Positions 22,525-33,526 of a DNA stretch of 64,000 nt are shown here, piece by piece. The DNA is from Shigella phage TB004. Below the pieces are notes generated by a model. The model searched no databases and was not told where the DNA came from. It saw only the letters and a list, made by a program, of their open reading frames with translations. The DNA lies in sequence record MW822011; one strand, written 5' to 3'. Position 1 is the first letter of the stretch; each line of letters starts with the position of its first letter. A program made the position numbers and the translations under genes.

Positions 22525-23181
22525 TTATTTAGCCCTTCCTAATATTCTGGCCGCCTGAGAACATATTGATTCAAGGCGGTCATTACTTATATGATCATTT
22601 CTATACCAGTACATGGTTATTGTTCCAGCATAGATGTTATCCAAATTAAAATATGGACAACTGTACATGTAATTTATTTCGGGAGTAGGCTTTTTAGTTG
22701 GTAAAAAAGCAAATTTTGAGTTGGAATAATAATGACGTCCATTTAAATGAACTGTATATTCATCCATAGTTTTATCAACAGGATATCCTCCAAGTGATTT
22801 TTCACTTATTGTTGAAGGTAATTTTCCTTCATATGCTATAATATCAACAAAATAGTTTAAGTTTTTAGGGCGGAAAGAATACACCGCACTAAAGTCTGCC
22901 TCAGATGATATGTGAACTATCTGGAGTTGTTCCAGGGCGACAGATTCAAAGCGTGCATTTCTTTCCTTTTCAATAATTTCACTGTATGTTTCATACTTTG
23001 ATTGCTTATAGTACTCAAAGAAACTATCTCCCCTATACCAAACAATCGCCATTATAAACAAAAGAATTACGACAGCTACTCGGGAAGCAAGAACCTTCCC
23101 GGTAGCATTATCTTTGAACAAGCGATCTAGAACACCCAACAGAATATCAGAGGGCGAAAATGATATTCTAGGTGCTGCCAT
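22525..23181 (-). CDS. t: holin T (218 aa)
   Basis: length equals T4 holin; N-terminal TMD and large periplasmic domain; adjacent to gene 38. Confidence 0.9.
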   Translation of the reverse strand: MAAPRISFSPSDILLGVLDRLFKDNATGKVLASRVAVVILLFIMAIVWYRGDSFFEYYKQSKYETYSEIIEKERNARFESVALEQLQIVHISSEADFSAVYSFRPKNLNYFVDIIAYEGKLPSTISEKSLGGYPVDKTMDEYTVHLNGRHYYSNSKFAFLPTKKPTPEINYMYSCPYFNLDNIYAGTITMYWYRNDHISNDRLESICSQAARILGRAK

Positions 23182-23199
23182 AGACCCTCCTTTTAAGGA

Positions 23200-23207
23200 T
23201 ATTTATT
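23200..23207 (-). promoter_or_regulatory. possible late promoter for t (AATAAATA on the coding strand)
   Basis: near match to late consensus TATAAATA. Confidence 0.3.
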
Positions 23208-23211
23208 CAAA

Positions 23212-24003
23212 TTATACTCTTGCACCATATATTGTACCAACTTTAGTCCAAGTTGGAGCATTACCAGTAACAGCTTTACCCGCAGCACCACCCGAGTGAA
23301 CAGTTCCTCCAGTACCACCTTGAATATGTGAAGATTTGCCAGCAGCTCCCAAATCTCCACCATTTCCTCCATAGTGAACCCCAGAAACAGTACCTTTACC
23401 AGGAGCAGAAATTGTACCAGCAGATGCTGCCGCGGCACCGCCTCCAGCTTTACCTGCTGCACCAAATGGACGACCTCCGCCACCTCCAAATATCATATCC
23501 ATTTGAGGGAAAGGATGGTATCTAGCACCAGCGCCGCCGCCACCACCACCACCGATAATACCATTATTGTTTATTCTTAAACGAGTTCCAATTCCGTTAT
23601 TTATTGCAGTTCCTCCTGCTCCACCAGCAGAGTTACTTCCGCCATTTCCTCCTCGACCTAATACATGAACCCCGCTATTAATATTTAAGGTAACGTATGC
23701 ATTAGTTAATGAGCTAGGAAAATCTAAGCATGGAACACCAGTAGATTGAGAAACAATATTTCCTGTAATAGTAACAACAACAGGAGTACTACCTTGAGAT
23801 TTGAGATAATTTATTAGCGTGTCTTTATTATAAGAATTGCTAGCACCAATACTGTAATATACTTCTTTAGATTGTCCAGCCATTGAGCTCATCCAACCGG
23901 GAACTGAAACACGAACTGCTTTCATTGCAGCATCCATCCAGCGTTGTCCAGTTTCATTCACGGCAGATTCACCAATCCAGCCAGGAACACCTACAATTGC
24001 CAT
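23212..24003 (-). CDS. 38: gp38 receptor-recognising adhesin, T2 type (263 aa)
   Basis: N-terminus MAIVGVPGWIGESAV; multiple polyglycine motifs separated by variable segments; immediately downstream of gene 37. Confidence 0.85.
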   Translation of the reverse strand: MAIVGVPGWIGESAVNETGQRWMDAAMKAVRVSVPGWMSSMAGQSKEVYYSIGASNSYNKDTLINYLKSQGSTPVVVTITGNIVSQSTGVPCLDFPSSLTNAYVTLNINSGVHVLGRGGNGGSNSAGGAGGTAINNGIGTRLRINNNGIIGGGGGGGAGARYHPFPQMDMIFGGGGGRPFGAAGKAGGGAAAASAGTISAPGKGTVSGVHYGGNGGDLGAAGKSSHIQGGTGGTVHSGGAAGKAVTGNAPTWTKVGTIYGARV

Positions 24004-24033: not shown

Positions 24034-27000
24034 TTACATAAGTTTAGATTCAAGTTCTTTTACACGAGCAGAAAGTGTTTTCACAGCTTCAACCAGAAGA
24101 GCAATCTGGGCTTGAGAAGAAACAGTGAGTATTTTATTACCCTTACTGTCTTCTGTTTCACGGACAGCTTCTGGTAAAACGTCTTGCAACGTTTGAGCCA
24201 CAATACCCGCTTCAGTTTCAATTGCCTCTCCACCGATGTATTCAGCTTTATCGTAAATGACACCGTTAAGTTTTTCAACTTTATCAAGTGCGTTTTCGAT
24301 AGGTTTAAAGTTGGATTTTAAACGAATATCAGAACGAATATAAACGTTTGGAGCATTTATATTTTTGTATGAGTACAAATCACCGTTTTGGAAACGGAAT
24401 ACTTGTGCGCTGTTCGCATATATGTCTAATAATCCATCGCCATTTTGCTTAATACCAGTATCATTATCACCAAATGTTATACTGTTTCCACCAAGAGAGT
24501 TTGATGTGTTAATACCAAATGAATTTATTTGAGTAACACCACCCACAGTAGCATTATTTACTACAAAGCGGTTAGCTCCACCTGGAGTCTTTTCAAAGTA
24601 AGCAATATAGTTAGTTTCATCTGCAATTTCAATGCGGTTACCGCGAGAAGCATCGCCAGCATGAAATATTCTCATATTTCTCGGGTTAGCACCTGATTTA
24701 TCAAAGTTAATAGAACCGTTATCTTTGACGTTTATGCTATTATAGAATAAAGCAGCGCTGCGAACAGCTATGCCATTATTCATCATCACTTCGCCGGTTG
24801 TTAAGTTAATTGCAAAAGGACGCTTACTATTCCAATCACCATTAACAGTTGCTGCGCCATCGGTGGCATTTTTATCTGTAAACAGAATATAAAAACTGCC
24901 GCCATCATTTCGTAGCATTGTAGCAACAGAACCAGTTTTATCGCCATTGCTTCTGATACGAATACCGGTTTGGCTATTAATAGCTATTTCAGAATCGGCT
25001 TCATAACGCTTAACTTTACCACGATCAACCAAGTTATTAAGAACATTAGCAACTTGACCGTTAACTGCTGTATCTGGGAGAGCATCTACAGGCGACTGCG
25101 TAGATGAGTTAATACCAATAACGCTAACAGTAGCATTTTCGGTACATGACCATTCACAAACTAGTTGATTACAATATGTTCCAGCATAAACATAAATGTC
25201 ATATGTATTTCCAGAGACATTGTTAACTGCAATATTTCTAAATGCTGCGCTATACATTCCAGTTGTTCTTGTGTATAATACAGCATTTAAGTCAGAAGGT
25301 CTTTCATTACTAGTACGTAAAACAATTTCAGCAATATTACATTGGGTGAATAATCCGCTATTAAATCCAGAACCTCCAACTATTTTAAAGAAGACTGTTG
25401 AAGTGGATTGTGGCATTGTTACTGTTGCAAACTTATACCATCCAGCAGTTGCTCCATAAGTAATAAATCCAGAATTAACTTTACGATTTAACGTGGTATT
25501 TAAGTTGGCAAAGTTTCCTGAACCATTGGTAATATTACCGTCAGTTCTTAGTTGGGCATTTCCGACTTTAAGAGGCTTAGTAATATCGACAGAATCAGAG
25601 TTTAATGCAATACCGTGGGAATAGGTATAGTTATGTAAACGAACAACGTTACCACCGTCACCAATACCCAAATACCATTTAGGCACATCAGCCTTACGTC
25701 CTTGGATAAAGTTAGACGCTGCTTGAGAAGAAGCATTCAAAACAATACCGTCGGAATCCATGTTAACACGAAAACGAACATCAGTTTGTACTAATTTAGA
25801 AACGTTATCAACCGTGAAAAGGTTTTTACCCGCTTGAGCATGGTTACCCATTACAACGGAGCCAGTTCCAAGGTTAATACTGAATGGTCTTATATCGGTT
25901 ATTCCACCGCTTTCGCCTTGGTTAATGGGTGTAGGAATTATATACAAGGAATCTTCTGAACGACGGAAAATAGCACCGTATTTAGCGTTCCAAATACGGA
26001 AGTTATCTGCGGTGCCACCGACCTTTAATTCGCCGTTTACTGACATGCCATTATTAACACTCAAAGAAGATTCGGTTGTAATAGAACCAGAAGCAACAAT
26101 ACTGCCTGAAGTCAATAAACCACCATTAACTCGGAGTTGAATAGGGCCGACAGTCGAACCAGGTGCAGGAGCTACGCGTTGAGAATAAAAATGGTAACCT
26201 TGCCCATCAGCTACTTCAAAAACGGTTTCACGATTACGATCACCAGATGCGTTAAATGCATTACCCCATGCTTTAACAGTTACATAACTCTTATTCTGAC
26301 CTGGGCGGGTACCGCCTTCCCACACTATAGATTTAGTGCCGTCAATACCTGAAGCTGCTTTAAAAACTAGAGAAGCATTAGTTCCATCACCATTAAAATA
26401 TAATCCATTATTAAGTTTTAATGTTTGAACAGAAGCGATTGTACCGTCGGCTCGTAAAGATAATGTGTTTGAGCCAGTTTTAATGTCTAAAATACCTGGC
26501 TCAACAATTAAACCTTCTGCCATACTAACTGACATACGGCCCCGGCCACGGAAATAGTGATACATTTTAGAATTACTGTTATAACCGATATGAGTTTGAC
26601 CATCGCCGTTATTATTACCATCAATATCGGTGCGTGCAGTAAACATTGCTTGGTTGTTATTTGGGAAATCCCAAGTAGAACCGGAATCTCGACTATAACC
26701 AACCATCAATTTTTTAGTACTATTAATACCATTATTCAAAATGGTAGCGGTTGAAATACCGTTAGCCATTAAGTCAATAACGCCATCGCGGACCCATTTA
26801 ATACCGGTATCGTTATCGCCAATCGCAATACCAATAGAAATTGCAGAATCAAGTGGATAACGGCCATTTGTACCACTATCAGGAAGACCTACTGAAATAG
26901 ATTTACCTGCGGTAATACGTCCAGTGGTATCAAATGCCCACTGGAAAGACGAAGGTCCTACGCCGGTCCACCAAGAAATTTCTTGTGGTTTTCCCGAACG

Positions 27001-27798
27001 ACAATCAACAATTTCATGGAAAATACTTGATGCACTTGATGCACGTAATTTACGCAAATAGTTCAATCCATTTGTAGTATTGTCGGAACCATCTGCCGGT
27101 GGGTTATAAACCCAGGTAGGTAAAGAAACAATGTCATAACCCGTGTCATTATTCGGTATAAAGGTTTTAGAACTCAGGTTAATATTTTTTGTATTGACGC
27201 GCGGTGCAGAAACAAATCCAGTTGCCGAGTTAATATTGCCTGATGCAGAAATATTACCTGCACGGACTTCAATACTGCCATTATCTACAATAAAACTACC
27301 GTTACGATTAAAAGTCCAATATTTTGAATCACCAGATTCATTGATATATTGAATTTTAAAACTACCTTCGTTTACTAACGTACCAACAGAAAAAGTTCCA
27401 TCTTTATAGCGTTGTTTAATTAGCGGATGGTATTCTGAAGTAGAAGTCGTTGAACTCAAATCGGTAAAGATAGGAGCTTTATTTTTATGTTGGTTTGCCC
27501 AAGCACCATTACCAGCAGTTTTAGGTAAAAATTCAATATATTTTCCTGCATAAACAAACTGGTTTCCATTAAGATTATATGTTCCATTTTGTAAATAATC
27601 ACCAGTTTGAGTGATATTACCACTGATATTACCGCCAGCGGAAATGCTTAAGTCAATGATATTTCCCGAATCATCTTTAGTAAAAAGTGTTCTATCTTTT
27701 AAGTTTATAGCCAATTCACCTTCGGCTAATACTGAAGCAGCAGGACGTGCACCTGCGGTTTTGCTTCTTTTAAATTGTATTTGTTTTAAAGTAGCCAT
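24034..27798 (-). CDS. 37: long tail fibre distal subunit gp37 (1254 aa) with C-terminal intramolecular chaperone/autoprotease domain
   Basis: size and position in the 34-35-36-37-38 operon; C-terminal SDIRLKSNF ... motif. Confidence 0.9.
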   Translation of the reverse strand: MATLKQIQFKRSKTAGARPAASVLAEGELAINLKDRTLFTKDDSGNIIDLSISAGGNISGNITQTGDYLQNGTYNLNGNQFVYAGKYIEFLPKTAGNGAWANQHKNKAPIFTDLSSTTSTSEYHPLIKQRYKDGTFSVGTLVNEGSFKIQYINESGDSKYWTFNRNGSFIVDNGSIEVRAGNISASGNINSATGFVSAPRVNTKNINLSSKTFIPNNDTGYDIVSLPTWVYNPPADGSDNTTNGLNYLRKLRASSASSIFHEIVDCRSGKPQEISWWTGVGPSSFQWAFDTTGRITAGKSISVGLPDSGTNGRYPLDSAISIGIAIGDNDTGIKWVRDGVIDLMANGISTATILNNGINSTKKLMVGYSRDSGSTWDFPNNNQAMFTARTDIDGNNNGDGQTHIGYNSNSKMYHYFRGRGRMSVSMAEGLIVEPGILDIKTGSNTLSLRADGTIASVQTLKLNNGLYFNGDGTNASLVFKAASGIDGTKSIVWEGGTRPGQNKSYVTVKAWGNAFNASGDRNRETVFEVADGQGYHFYSQRVAPAPGSTVGPIQLRVNGGLLTSGSIVASGSITTESSLSVNNGMSVNGELKVGGTADNFRIWNAKYGAIFRRSEDSLYIIPTPINQGESGGITDIRPFSINLGTGSVVMGNHAQAGKNLFTVDNVSKLVQTDVRFRVNMDSDGIVLNASSQAASNFIQGRKADVPKWYLGIGDGGNVVRLHNYTYSHGIALNSDSVDITKPLKVGNAQLRTDGNITNGSGNFANLNTTLNRKVNSGFITYGATAGWYKFATVTMPQSTSTVFFKIVGGSGFNSGLFTQCNIAEIVLRTSNERPSDLNAVLYTRTTGMYSAAFRNIAVNNVSGNTYDIYVYAGTYCNQLVCEWSCTENATVSVIGINSSTQSPVDALPDTAVNGQVANVLNNLVDRGKVKRYEADSEIAINSQTGIRIRSNGDKTGSVATMLRNDGGSFYILFTDKNATDGAATVNGDWNSKRPFAINLTTGEVMMNNGIAVRSAALFYNSINVKDNGSINFDKSGANPRNMRIFHAGDASRGNRIEIADETNYIAYFEKTPGGANRFVVNNATVGGVTQINSFGINTSNSLGGNSITFGDNDTGIKQNGDGLLDIYANSAQVFRFQNGDLYSYKNINAPNVYIRSDIRLKSNFKPIENALDKVEKLNGVIYDKAEYIGGEAIETEAGIVAQTLQDVLPEAVRETEDSKGNKILTVSSQAQIALLVEAVKTLSARVKELESKLM

Positions 27799-27806
27799 AA
27801 GTCCTC

Positions 27807-28466
27807 TTAATAATAGCCGAAATCTTGAACAGAATCCTTAATTACGATTTGGTCAAATCGCGGAACGTGTGAAGGTTGAGATGCAGGATTCTGCGAGAAA
27901 AAGTTTGGTGCGGTTAAGTTACCCGTCATAGTATCGCCAGATCGTAACACTCTAGAGTTCGCATTTGCCGTAACAGTATTTATTGCTCCATCAACATAGT
28001 CCTTTCTAGTAAGGTCATTTGCGGCAATGGGCGCTGCGGCTTCGGCTCGCACCTGACGCTGTGAATTTATATTACCACGGGCCGAAATTTCACCGTCACG
28101 AACGTTAAAAACAATTGTCCTAGGTCCTGTTCCTTGAGATGATTTAAATCCGATACCATACCAAGATATTATATCAAGGTTAACATTATCATAAGTTGCT
28201 CCATCACCTGGCCCAACAAACATCCCGGTCAGACCATTGCCAGCTCCCGGGACTTGAATACCCTGGTTAAAGGTAACTCGGTTTAGATAAATACCGCCAT
28301 TAGCTTTAGAAACGAAATCGTTATCTGCAGCTTGTGGTTTATTATATTCTGAATATATTTTAAATGATTTATAGAGTACATCGTCACCGGCTGGATTCAA
28401 TGGAAAATTTCCTTGATGCCAAATGACAGAGCCTCCAGTTGTTGAACCTACTTTTAAATCAGCCAT
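27807..28466 (-). CDS. 36: long tail fibre hinge connector gp36 (219 aa)
   Basis: size and position. Confidence 0.85.
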   Translation of the reverse strand: MADLKVGSTTGGSVIWHQGNFPLNPAGDDVLYKSFKIYSEYNKPQAADNDFVSKANGGIYLNRVTFNQGIQVPGAGNGLTGMFVGPGDGATYDNVNLDIISWYGIGFKSSQGTGPRTIVFNVRDGEISARGNINSQRQVRAEAAAPIAANDLTRKDYVDGAINTVTANANSRVLRSGDTMTGNLTAPNFFSQNPASQPSHVPRFDQIVIKDSVQDFGYY

Positions 28467-28529: not shown

Positions 28530-29645
28530 TTAAACTTCTCTAAATTCTTGTCCAAACACTTTACCAGTTTTAGACGATGCTTGCGTAGGAAGTACCATTA
28601 TATCCGGAGGTGAAGCAGATTCACAGACATAATTAACTCGAATACCGTTGACGCCAAATTCAGCAGGTTTCGAAATTCCGCCATTTCTTGACACTTCAGA
28701 AAAGCTTAAATTTCTCATGCCACCTTGACCAGCTTGTGCAGTTCTTTGTGCATATATCGTAAATCCCACAGCGTTTTCTGGAACAACTACATAATCTTCT
28801 TTTAATTCCCAAGACCCAGCTTGCCCGGTAAACTCAGCTTGTGTTGAAGAAATATATCCGTTAGATGCATTATAAAAACGGATAGATATATTTGTAGTTC
28901 CAAGAGCAAGTAAATCGGCATCAGCATATAACTGAGCTTTAAGATAAAGAACATCACCAGGAATTAAATTATAATCAGAGAGTTTACTTATAGCAGCTGA
29001 AGTTGGCAATCGCGCAATTTCGTTATTAGTTCCACCGACTGCTGACATAAATTGCTCAATGCTTTCGTATGTTCTTTTAGGAAATCCCGTAGCTCCAACA
29101 TCTTCTAAACTGTCAAATACAACATCTAAAATAGTTTGATAGTCGTCTGTGCTTTTTCTATTACTTAATTTAACATGCTCTAATGCAATAGCTCTTTTAG
29201 AAGAAGTGTAAAAAGCAGCATATGATACGTCAAATCTTGACAATATAGAATCAGATGGAAAAGCAGACGTTCCTGCGGTTCTTAGCCAAGATACTACTTC
29301 AGGAGGAAAATTAACCTTTCCGCTAGTTAATATAGCAACAAGTCTATTATTCGCCAAAGAATTCATGAAACTAACAAAAGCAGCTGATGTAGTATCATTT
29401 GAAGTAGAAAAAGCATATGACTTACTATCAACTAATGCTCCGGTGGAAGGGTCAAAAACTCTTAGATGAAGACCTGCGCTAAATGTTTGACTTCCAACAG
29501 GATTATCTTGAAATTTAACGTATGGTCCTGCAGTAGAAAGCGGGCAAGAACCCGCTATACTTATTTTATATCTTACTGAATTACTTTCCGATAAAAATGG
29601 CGTTTGGACATATCCTTGTCCAAACTCTGCCATAAATTTTTCCAT
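28530..29645 (-). CDS. 35: long tail fibre hinge protein gp35 (371 aa)
   Basis: size and position. Confidence 0.85.
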   Translation of the reverse strand: MEKFMAEFGQGYVQTPFLSESNSVRYKISIAGSCPLSTAGPYVKFQDNPVGSQTFSAGLHLRVFDPSTGALVDSKSYAFSTSNDTTSAAFVSFMNSLANNRLVAILTSGKVNFPPEVVSWLRTAGTSAFPSDSILSRFDVSYAAFYTSSKRAIALEHVKLSNRKSTDDYQTILDVVFDSLEDVGATGFPKRTYESIEQFMSAVGGTNNEIARLPTSAAISKLSDYNLIPGDVLYLKAQLYADADLLALGTTNISIRFYNASNGYISSTQAEFTGQAGSWELKEDYVVVPENAVGFTIYAQRTAQAGQGGMRNLSFSEVSRNGGISKPAEFGVNGIRVNYVCESASPPDIMVLPTQASSKTGKVFGQEFREV

Positions 29646-29653
29646 AATACCTC

Positions 29654-32600
29654 TTATTCAATCCATTCAAATTTAACAGATTTATTCACTGGGTCAGGAA
29701 TAATGCGAACATTACCAATTCGTAAGAAATCACGAATAGTAAGATTCCCCATTGTAGCATTATCAGATGGTAAAGCACCGATATCAGATGGTTGAGGAGG
29801 GTTACCTCCGTCAAATACCTGAACAAAACTTGACCAAGAGTTTTTGGTTTTCTGCCATGTACGTGTCCAGCGAGTGGTACGTGCTTCTGGAGTCGTTGGA
29901 TAAGTAATCCAATCTTGGTAAAGCGAATCAAGTGTGTTACCAAACTGAGTCAATGTACCAGGAGATTTAACTTCTTCGCCACGTTCTAAGTATGGAAGTC
30001 CAGTCACTTCATTAGTTTTTTCAACCATTTTAAAATAACCTGGGAACTGGTTATAAGTAGCTGAATCATTAATATCGATTGACCAGAATCCTACAGTATC
30101 AGATGTTGGCGCACGGGTATATAAGTCAGATGTTTTAGTGCCCTGAGAACGAATTCTCGAGTTAACAGTTAAACCACCTGAATTTATAGTAGCACCTTTG
30201 GCAATGATTAAGCTTTCACCAATCGTTACTTGACCGGACTGATTGTTAATAGCTAAAGGACGTAATCCATTAAATCCGCCAGTCTGATCACCTGATGTAG
30301 TAAGCATAAAATAGACATTAGCACCATCATTACGAATAAAGAATCCGTAATTACCACTAATAGCTCTAAAAGCATTCGATGATTTGCTGATGAATTCACC
30401 ATTAGCAGTAACTGAACGACCGAATGTTGCAACGCCATTAACATTCATCAAACCGGAAGCATTAATGTTTATTGGCATTACAGTACCATTAATGCTAAAC
30501 GCTATATTCCCGTCTTCTTTATTACGTTGAGAATAAAAGTGATAAGATGTATCATCACCAACTTCAAACACTGTCGAACGGGTCGTATCACTACCGCCGC
30601 CAAATTGGTTACCCCATACACGGATGCTCATTGACTGAACCGGGTTTGCACCGGATGCAGGACCTTTTTCGAAAACGATACGGGTCGGAGTTCCAGTATT
30701 AGAAATAGTTAATGTACTATTTGCCGAAACTGAACCACCAAACGTAGCAGTACTAGATGATACAAGAGGGGCACTCAGATTCGTTTGTTGGGTTAAGGTT
30801 AGTGAACCATTAACCGTCTGTGCAATGTCCCTACGAATGAACTGGGATGAATCTAGACCATCCAATAAATTTGTATCAGCAGCTTTTGCTTTTAATGGCA
30901 AATAATTTGCTAATACACGGTTTAATTCATATGGTGATACTGCATAACTATTTTTTTCGTATAATTCTAATGACTGGGTTGAACCAACGGTATCATTACC
31001 GACGAATGTAATTGAACCAGATGAAGTTTTAACAAATCCTCTTATCGCAGTAGTAGCTGCCCAAGTAGGTTCACTCTGCACAATCCATTTTAAATTTTTT
31101 GGAGATACAGCAGTATTTGCTGACGTTCCAGTTACAGTTTCAGACTGAGTTGCAACTTTAATAACACCTTCCTGTGCTTCAGTAGATTTAGTACCTAAAA
31201 GCTTTTTAGGAGTTATTAAAACATTATCTAATGTTCCTGCAGCAGCTTCAACTTGCGTAGCTACACGAAGTGTACCACGCTGTTTCTCATTTGCTTCAAG
31301 AATATTAAGGGTATAATGGTCCCAGAGAGTTCCTGATTCAACTAATCCAGATAGAGCAACAACAGAAGTACGATCAGTACTATTAAATCTAGTTTTAATT
31401 TTTAATGGTGTAGAGATACGAGTATCGTCGACGCCTGCGTCGAATTCAACTTGTGTAGCAATTTCAGCTATACCACTTAAACTTTCAGTTGCTCTACGGT
31501 CATTTAAAGTTTTAGGAGTGACTGCACGAGTATAATCAGTTCCTGTATTAACTTCACTTTGCGTAGCAATTTCAATTAAACCAATTCTTCCATCAGTTGA
31601 TGTCTTTTTATGTAACGTTTCTGGCGTTACAACAGCATTTGCCCATCCTTCTTGACTTTTTCCAGCAATTACTTCACTTTCAACTGCTAAAATTACTGCA
31701 CCTTGTTGTGTTGGAGTAGCTTTATACTGATCCAGAGCTTTAGGTGAAACAACTAAATTATTAGTGTTTTTATTATAAACGTTTGTACCATTTAATTCAC
31801 GACTAGAAGCTGGAGTAGCTCCTGCAGTAGATACAAATGTTACAATACCAGATAATGATTCAGAACCTTGTCGAGCTTGAAGCTTTTTAGGAGTGATGAT
31901 TGTAGTATCATCAGTACCTGCATTAGTTTCCTGTTGCGTAGCAATTTCAGCAACACCTCTACGAGTTTCTGTAGCAGTTCTTTCATTCAGCTTTTTAGGA
32001 GTGATGATAATATCATCAGCAAAAGAGAATGTGGTGTTCTGATTCACTTGAGCAGTAGTTGCTATTCTTGCGATACCTCTACGAGTTTCTGTAGCAGTAC
32101 GGTTAGCTAATGTTTCTGGAGTAATTGCTAATTCTTTTTGTGGAGAATTTTCTAAATCGACATTAGCTTGAGCTTGTGTAGCTAAAGCAATTACACCTAA
32201 TCTTGCTCTAGTAGAATCATTTAAAGAATCAACTCTTTCTACGGTTGGAACGTTTTGCTGTACAACCCAATATTTTCCATCAGAATCTTCTATGTAAGCA
32301 AGCTCCAAAACTGGAACATAATTAGTTTCACCGTTAAAAACTAATTCTTGAACAGTCACCCATTTAGTTTCAGGCGGATACTCTGAACGTTTTGGGAATT
32401 GCAGCAATTGAACTGAAGAAGCAATTTTATCTTCACCGGCAGCTTTGATTTTAACTGTTTGTCCTTTTCTCATGTAATTCATGGAAATTTTAACAGTATC
32501 ACCAACAGAAATATTAGTTGGAAGCTTAAGCTCAATTGTCTGAGCTGTTCCGTTATTCGCACCAAATACCATAACTTCTTCATTTGGACGAATATTAGAA

Positions 32601-33526
32601 TTAGTCGTTATAATGCGTAAACGCGCTTTACTATCCCCGTCAAACAATCTCCACAATTTCTCATTATCATCAAACATCAAGAAACCGTCAATCGTTGTAC
32701 GGCCTTCAATGGAATGAGTTCCAACTTCTTGTATTGAAGTCGTTTCATCGTATGTAGTAACAATTGTATGATAAAGCGGATTTAGTTTATCTAAATCGAC
32801 GAAATTAATAATATCGCCATGATTAGCAAATCTTGGAAGTTTAACATTAATTGGTGCAGCAGAAGTAAATCTACGTACGATAAAATCGTTGGATTGCGCT
32901 TGATAAGTATTCGCTGGTGTTACAACTACAGCTTCTCTGCTATAATCAGCTACATACATTTGCCACAGACGATTACTAAAAATTAAAACTAGCTGTGACT
33001 TTGGATGAGTCATTAGTACTGAACGTACTTGCTCGCCTCTGAAGTTTACAATACTTTGCACCGGAGCTACAATTAAAACTTGGTTAACTCCAGGTTTTCC
33101 TCCAATATCTTGGAGAACGATAGTATCACCATCAATTGGAGTAGATGGTAAAGTAAATGTAATATCATTACCAGCTGCAGTGTTAACCGAAATAGCTTCA
33201 CCGGATTTTAATTGATATGAACCAGATGAAACTGTAATCCAGTTAGCATCAGTACGTAATGCTCTCCAGCGTCCGCTATTAAAAGCTCCTGCCGGTTTTG
33301 GAATATCATTTATAGCAGCCCAAAAGCGGTTATCATAAATGATTACAAAATCTTTTAAATATCCACGAGTTGGATCATATTGTTGAACTGTGTTTTCTTG
33401 AATTAGATAATCAACGTTAACACCGTCAGTTCCTACGGTACGATCAGCTAAAGCTACGTTGATTATTTTATCGCCACCTGCGTCCAGACCATCTTCTGCT
33501 CTGAACTTTCTTTTAATCTCGGCCAT
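29654..33526 (-). CDS. 34: long tail fibre proximal subunit gp34 (1290 aa)
   Basis: size equals T4 gp34; internal tail-fibre repeats (ATETRRGxA ... TPKKL). Confidence 0.9.
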   Translation of the reverse strand: MAEIKRKFRAEDGLDAGGDKIINVALADRTVGTDGVNVDYLIQENTVQQYDPTRGYLKDFVIIYDNRFWAAINDIPKPAGAFNSGRWRALRTDANWITVSSGSYQLKSGEAISVNTAAGNDITFTLPSTPIDGDTIVLQDIGGKPGVNQVLIVAPVQSIVNFRGEQVRSVLMTHPKSQLVLIFSNRLWQMYVADYSREAVVVTPANTYQAQSNDFIVRRFTSAAPINVKLPRFANHGDIINFVDLDKLNPLYHTIVTTYDETTSIQEVGTHSIEGRTTIDGFLMFDDNEKLWRLFDGDSKARLRIITTNSNIRPNEEVMVFGANNGTAQTIELKLPTNISVGDTVKISMNYMRKGQTVKIKAAGEDKIASSVQLLQFPKRSEYPPETKWVTVQELVFNGETNYVPVLELAYIEDSDGKYWVVQQNVPTVERVDSLNDSTRARLGVIALATQAQANVDLENSPQKELAITPETLANRTATETRRGIARIATTAQVNQNTTFSFADDIIITPKKLNERTATETRRGVAEIATQQETNAGTDDTTIITPKKLQARQGSESLSGIVTFVSTAGATPASSRELNGTNVYNKNTNNLVVSPKALDQYKATPTQQGAVILAVESEVIAGKSQEGWANAVVTPETLHKKTSTDGRIGLIEIATQSEVNTGTDYTRAVTPKTLNDRRATESLSGIAEIATQVEFDAGVDDTRISTPLKIKTRFNSTDRTSVVALSGLVESGTLWDHYTLNILEANEKQRGTLRVATQVEAAAGTLDNVLITPKKLLGTKSTEAQEGVIKVATQSETVTGTSANTAVSPKNLKWIVQSEPTWAATTAIRGFVKTSSGSITFVGNDTVGSTQSLELYEKNSYAVSPYELNRVLANYLPLKAKAADTNLLDGLDSSQFIRRDIAQTVNGSLTLTQQTNLSAPLVSSSTATFGGSVSANSTLTISNTGTPTRIVFEKGPASGANPVQSMSIRVWGNQFGGGSDTTRSTVFEVGDDTSYHFYSQRNKEDGNIAFSINGTVMPININASGLMNVNGVATFGRSVTANGEFISKSSNAFRAISGNYGFFIRNDGANVYFMLTTSGDQTGGFNGLRPLAINNQSGQVTIGESLIIAKGATINSGGLTVNSRIRSQGTKTSDLYTRAPTSDTVGFWSIDINDSATYNQFPGYFKMVEKTNEVTGLPYLERGEEVKSPGTLTQFGNTLDSLYQDWITYPTTPEARTTRWTRTWQKTKNSWSSFVQVFDGGNPPQPSDIGALPSDNATMGNLTIRDFLRIGNVRIIPDPVNKSVKFEWIE

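Follow-up and report, generated by a model that had tools for sequence, protein, structure and literature searches.

Sequence comparison supports the assignment of the last 99 residues of gp37, the precursor of the distal subunit of the long tail fiber, to the C-terminal intramolecular chaperones (IMCs) of the Peptidase S74 family, and by analogy with characterized members of that family it is very probable that the module cleaves itself off and so frees the gp37 tip for gp38. The window, a stretch of 64,000 nucleotides from Shigella phage TB004 (MW822011), is a Tequatrovirus (T-even) genome segment. The phage collection contains no identical record, and the closest one is phage REP4, with 95.6% nucleotide identity over positions 1-25000 of the window and 91.8% in the gp37-gp38 region. 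The long-tail-fiber genes form a minus-strand operon in the canonical order gp34-gp35-gp36-gp37-gp38-t (Table 1). The window runs opposite to the standard T4 map, with gp52, motA and asiA on the plus strand and the fiber operon and t on the minus strand. A search with ARAGORN over positions 1-64000 returned no tRNA genes.

In the list of open reading frames gp37 comprises 1254 residues plus a stop codon, and positions 24037-24333, read on the minus strand, encode its residues 1156-1254 up to the last codon. The translation of this interval is SDIRLKSNFKPIENALDKVEKLNGVIYDKAEYIGGEAIETEAGIVAQTLQDVLPEAVRETEDSKGNKILTVSSQAQIALLVEAVKTLSARVKELESKLM, beginning with SDIRLKSNFKPIENALDKVEKLNGV and ending in ESKLM. 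A plus-strand reading was rejected: its translation is full of stops, and the feature must therefore lie on the minus strand. The preliminary description had located a chaperone and autoprotease module of roughly 100 residues in this same interval. Its size estimate agrees well with the 99 residues that follow the predicted cut, and the limits of the interval coincide exactly with the predicted catalytic Ser and the final codon of gp37, but the interval is valid on the minus strand only. The residues YIR, which had been counted as part of the motif, are encoded at 24334-24342 (minus strand), directly before Ser1156.

Table 1. Positions in the window of gp37, its predicted processing products and functional residues, and the other genes of the fiber operon.
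Feature	Position	Strand	Basis or remark
gp37, long tail fiber distal subunit precursor	24034..27798	-	ORF; Pfam gp37_trimer, Gp34_trimer, Peptidase_S74
Predicted mature gp37, aa 1-1155, ending in NAPNVYIR	24334..27798	-	Inferred from the catalytic Ser position and the S16 and T5 cleavage sites
Distal tip of mature gp37, aa 1088-1155, T2-type, predicted gp38 docking end	24334..24537	-	T2-like block
IMC / S74 autoprotease module, aa 1156-1254, 99 aa	24037..24333	-	Pfam; T2 identity; predicted release on cleavage
Pfam PF13884 core, aa 1156-1213, including the conserved E-AG-I-V-AQ motif	24160..24333	-	Pfam match
C-terminal helix, about aa 1229-1253, ending in LLVEAVKTLSARVKELESKL	24040..24114	-	Aligns to the ARLSAxExK helices of T5 and K1F
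Predicted scissile bond Arg1155/Ser1156	24331..24336	-	Homology; Ser1156 codon 24331-24333, predicted nucleophile
Lys1161, predicted general base of the Ser-Lys dyad (Ser + 5)	24316..24318	-	Conserved spacing
gp38, T2-type Gly-rich adhesin, 263 aa	23212..24003	-	Pfam GP38 (PF05268) 1e-68; Gp38_N (PF21721) 7.3e-18
gp36	27807-28466	-	ORF; 660 nt, same length and order as in T2
gp35	28530-29645	-	ORF; 1116 nt, same length and order as in T2
gp34	29654-33526	-	ORF; compared with T2 for order and position only, T2 gp34 being cut at the edge of the compared stretch
Holin t	22525-23181	-	ORF, after gp38

Membership of the S74 family was established by the Peptidase_S74 profile (PF13884), which matched gp37 residues 1156-1213 over its full length (profile positions 1-58 of 58; E = 2.3e-15; 57.1 bits, with a curated gathering score of 22 bits). 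A profile search of this kind had been proposed in the preliminary description as a check, and its outcome is positive. The first position of the profile corresponds to Ser1156. The module ends at the gp37 stop codon and thus forms the extreme C-terminus of a protein that also carries fiber trimerization domains recognized by Pfam, and no second S74 copy was found in any of the six frames of the window, leaving a single copy only. A chance resemblance of motifs in an unrelated fiber C-terminus is extremely improbable. Nothing speaks for it, although the short motif would on its own be weak evidence for the module, since its relaxed form S[DN]x[RE][LIR]K recurs once in the window in a spurious frame. 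Chance is refuted by the E-value of the PF13884 match, by the presence of a recognizable copy of the module in about 1,584 phage records, by the match of the window sequence alone to the S16 gp37 structure 6F45 (E = 2.8e-13), and by the matches of a profile constructed from ten homologs.

The alignment underlying this last profile was composed of T-even relatives, Aeromonas, Vibrio and Pantoea phages, a cyanophage, a Pseudomonas jumbo phage and a Rhizobium phage, and contained no K1F, T5, GA-1 or MYRF sequence. In all ten of these diverse phage homologs Ser1156, Asp1157 and Lys1161 are invariant, as are G, A and Q of the AGIVAQ motif. Besides S16 gp37 (6F45), the profile matched myelin regulatory factor (MYRF; 7DC3, 5e-12), a tail fiber (8JOV, 1e-9) and the neck-appendage chaperone of phage GA-1 (3GUD, 4.3e-4). 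The matching ICA domain of MYRF is homologous to the gp37 module and was also detected by phmmer (E = 0.0019), although MYRF is a eukaryotic membrane-bound transcription factor. The deposited 7DC3 chain has an Ala at the Ser position ('ADLRAK') and presumably represents a cleavage-blocking mutant.

The Ser and downstream Lys singled out in the preliminary description fall in register with the experimentally defined dyad of T5 pb1 and with that of the K1F endosialidase. In a scan of reference proteins, position 1 of PF13884 was likewise occupied by Ser1264 of T5 pb1, Ser638 of S16 gp37 and Ser1243 of T2 gp37, while Lys916 of K1F fell on position 6, which places its Ser911 at position 1. The Ser-x4-Lys arrangement is conserved in five of five proteins (S1156/K1161 here; T5, 1264/1269; K1F, 911/916; S16, 638/643; T2, 1243/1248). 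For K1F the register was taken from Pfam profile positions, from direct location of S-x4-K and from a Ser-anchored alignment; a three-sequence MAFFT alignment that misplaced the K1F Ser was discarded. The K1F domain (CIMCD; PDB 3GW6) is the prototype of MEROPS/Pfam S74 and has a GVIAQ motif and a terminal coiled-coil helix in common with the gp37 module, but it is 17.6% identical, measures 154 residues and is carried by a tailspike enzyme, not a fiber.

Two further characterized systems bear on the position of the cut. In T5 pb1, the bond between Thr1263 and Ser1264 is cleaved, Lys1269 activates Ser1264, and this Ser leaves with the chaperone (PMC4690869). T5 pb1 has the same Pfam register, the same Ser/Lys spacing and the same SDxRLK motif as gp37, and its C-terminal helix (ARLSAIEDK) is similar to ARVKELESK here. 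However, its module is 21% identical, is 133 residues long and bears long β-hairpin 'tentacles' with only a short counterpart here, and the mature T5 tip binds the receptor itself, with no gp38-like adhesin. S16 gp37 (6F45; Dunne et al. 2018, as presented in PMC7917993) offers the more complete parallel, with a GDNDTG tip, the S-D-x-R-[IL]-K and AG[IL]IAQ motifs, a C-terminal helix and a gp38 gene, all as in the window. It is cut at S^SDRRIKK (^ marks the cut), a site that has been aligned to DVYIR^SDGRLKI of Tequatrovirus gp37 homologs, and removal of its chaperone exposes the docking surface for the N-terminal domain of gp38 (PMC7917993). The S16 module is 28.6% identical to that of gp37, with 112 residues as opposed to 99 and DLNVS^S in place of NVYIR^S. 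The S16 tail fiber is listed among IMC-bearing proteins in other papers as well.

The preliminary description had spoken of a Ser-Asp cleavage site. The Ser, the Asp and the Lys are all present, but the sites of S16 and T5 point to Arg1155/Ser1156 as the scissile bond, in the context NVYIR^SDIRLKS, and not to the bond between Ser and Asp. The released GA-1 chaperone chain 3GUD starts at the aligned Ser-Asp, in agreement with a cut N-terminal to the Ser. By analogy with these proteins, Ser1156 should leave together with the 99-residue chaperone.

In a rival account, the module is a genuine S74 chaperone but is cut in trans by a host or phage protease. The sequence computations presented here cannot separate cis from trans cleavage, and the original T2 work, as represented in a paper citing it, demonstrated only the removal of the C-terminus. 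We nevertheless regard cleavage in trans as most unlikely, since even very distant phages retain the Ser-Lys dyad without exception, the single exchange S1264A blocks cleavage of recombinant T5 pb1 (PMC4690869), S16 gp37 is reported to autocleave, and auto-cleavage of T2 and T6 gp37 is stated in print.

C-terminal processing of T2 gp37 was reported in 1986 (Drexler, Riede and Henning, J Mol Biol 191:267, as cited in PMC3157838). The last 107 residues of gp37, spanning NAPNVYIR^SDIRLK to the final Met and hence the eight residues before the cut plus the whole module, are identical to T2 gp37, which itself gives the same S74 match; the agreement with T2 claimed in the preliminary description is thereby borne out. 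The 1986 study reportedly estimated the removed piece at about 120 residues, compared with the 99 predicted here. The module corresponds, with 100% identity, to residues 1243-1341 of T2 gp37, and a tblastn search with the last 128 residues retrieved phage LH2 at 100% and T2 and K3 at 99.2%. The C-terminal processed region of T2 gp37, together with that of K3 gp37, is the closest known counterpart, and in T2 as in the window a T2-type gp38 follows. Outside this region the likeness to T2 declines: T2 gp37 has 1341 residues and is 87 residues longer, and identity is 52% over residues 1-1017, as opposed to 95% over the last 167 residues. The receptor loops of T2 gp38 also differ from those here. 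These differences in the rest of gp37 and in the gp38 loops concern host range, not the chaperone.

Retention of the module as an uncleaved C-terminal trimerization domain, with full-length gp37 in the virion, appears even less probable than a cut in trans. In its favor, gp37 has no Arg that is obviously in register with the one at -14 acting as a folding sensor in T5 and K1F. On the other hand, the dyad is intact, the module and the eight residues before it are identical to those of T2, whose processing is documented, and a retained chaperone would occupy the end at which gp38 is known to dock in S16 (PMC7917993).

Compared with T2, gp37 is a mosaic, in which the first 60 residues are near-identical, residues from about 1018 to 1087 are unaligned and the last 167 residues are 95-100% identical. 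Judged from these sequences, the tip, the IMC and the N-terminal domain of gp38 look like a cassette common to the window and T2 that has been placed on a different shaft.

T4 gp37 presents a different picture. No S74 match was obtained for it in Pfam at E<=1, and no S-x4-K occurs in its last 200 residues; instead, it contains Collar and Phage_fiber domains, neither of which is present in gp37 of the window. T4 gp38 is an unrelated protein. The contrast with T4 drawn in the preliminary description thus holds, and the fiber of the window is not a T4-type system, in which gp37 itself bears a receptor-binding needle and gp38 is an assembly chaperone.

The gene directly downstream of gp37 encodes a T2-type adhesin, not a T4-type assembly factor, and its N-terminal 46 residues are nearly identical to those of T2 gp38, so that the window encodes a T2-type long tail fiber system with gp38 as adhesin. 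Between its Gly-rich motifs, gp38 departs substantially from the T2 and S16 proteins, which suggests, at the level of sequence, that the same docking module here carries specificity for a different outer-membrane receptor. Several open reading frames of 60-100 codons overlap gp38 at 23193-23580, either out of frame with it or on the opposite strand. They have the look of by-products of a sequence rich in Gly codons, not of genes.

On the gp37 side, the tip formed by residues 1088-1155 aligns to the S16 gp37 distal fragment 6F45 and falls within the segment with 95% identity to T2, and from the S16 literature we infer that gp38 docks at this tip. The motif GDNDTGIK is found twice in gp37, at 26797-26820 (minus strand; residues 327-334) and at 24448-24471 (minus strand; residues 1110-1117), with similar flanks (IAIGDNDTGIKWVRDGVIDLMANG and ITFGDNDTGIKQNGDGLLDIYANS), and in S16 gp37 it also directly precedes the IMC. 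This motif may represent a structural repeat that has been conserved, and possibly marks a recombination boundary.

Taken together with the published systems, the following sequence of events is proposed. The module would nucleate gp37 trimerization from the C-terminal end and set its register. In the correctly folded trimer, Lys1161 would then activate Ser1156 for attack on the Arg1155-Ser1156 bond in each chain, whereupon the 99-residue chaperone would be released. This would leave a new tip, ending in NAPNVYIR, to which gp38 could then bind through its N-terminal domain; as the adhesin, gp38 would supply receptor recognition. It is from homologous proteins that we predict cleavage, the bond at which it occurs and its timing before gp38 binding. 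For S16, T2 and T6 the literature describes a gp37 that carries an IMC, auto-cleaves after trimerization and is then capped by gp38; with a T2-type gp38 adjoining gp37 in the window, this is consistent with the preliminary description, which had likewise placed cleavage before gp38 binding.

How folding is sensed before the cut may be one respect in which this module departs from its relatives. With 99 residues it is shorter than those of S16 (112), T5 (133) and K1F (154). In T5, cleavage is coupled to proper assembly of the trimer through an Arg from the neighboring chain (PMC4690869). At the position of this residue (T5 Arg1250, folding sensor or oxyanion helper), 14 residues before Ser1156, the sequence alignment shows no Arg in gp37, the candidates being R1135 (-21) and R1155 (-1). 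Given the short module, its short hairpins and the lack of an Arg at -14, the check on folding might therefore follow another route, such as one involving Arg1155 at the P1 position or Arg1135, a possibility that we put forward tentatively and consider rather doubtful. By analogy with the T5 structure (PMC4690869), the C-terminal helix (about residues 1229-1253) likely forms the trimeric coiled coil of the chaperone. This segment is helical in a single-sequence AlphaFold2 model of residues 1088-1254, which consists of helices and a long terminal helix at low confidence (mean pLDDT 46.2, a poor value). At that confidence, its secondary structure would be compatible with the IMC fold, a mixed α/β domain plus a terminal trimeric coiled coil.

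The identification of the module is correct but ordinary: the feature was already known, and the copy in the window is identical to that of T2. No new question arises from it, as T2 gp37 has been known since 1986 to be processed and the IMC account has been published for S16, T2 and T6. An altered check on folding, if true, would make the module a mechanistic sub-variant within a known family and not a new kind of system. For annotation, the finding means that the mature fiber is predicted to end at Arg1155 and the 99-residue tail to be absent from the virion. Recombinant or chimeric gp37 must retain this tail for the fiber to fold, and in the engineering of host range the tip, the IMC and the N-terminal domain of gp38 are to be kept as a matched set in swaps.
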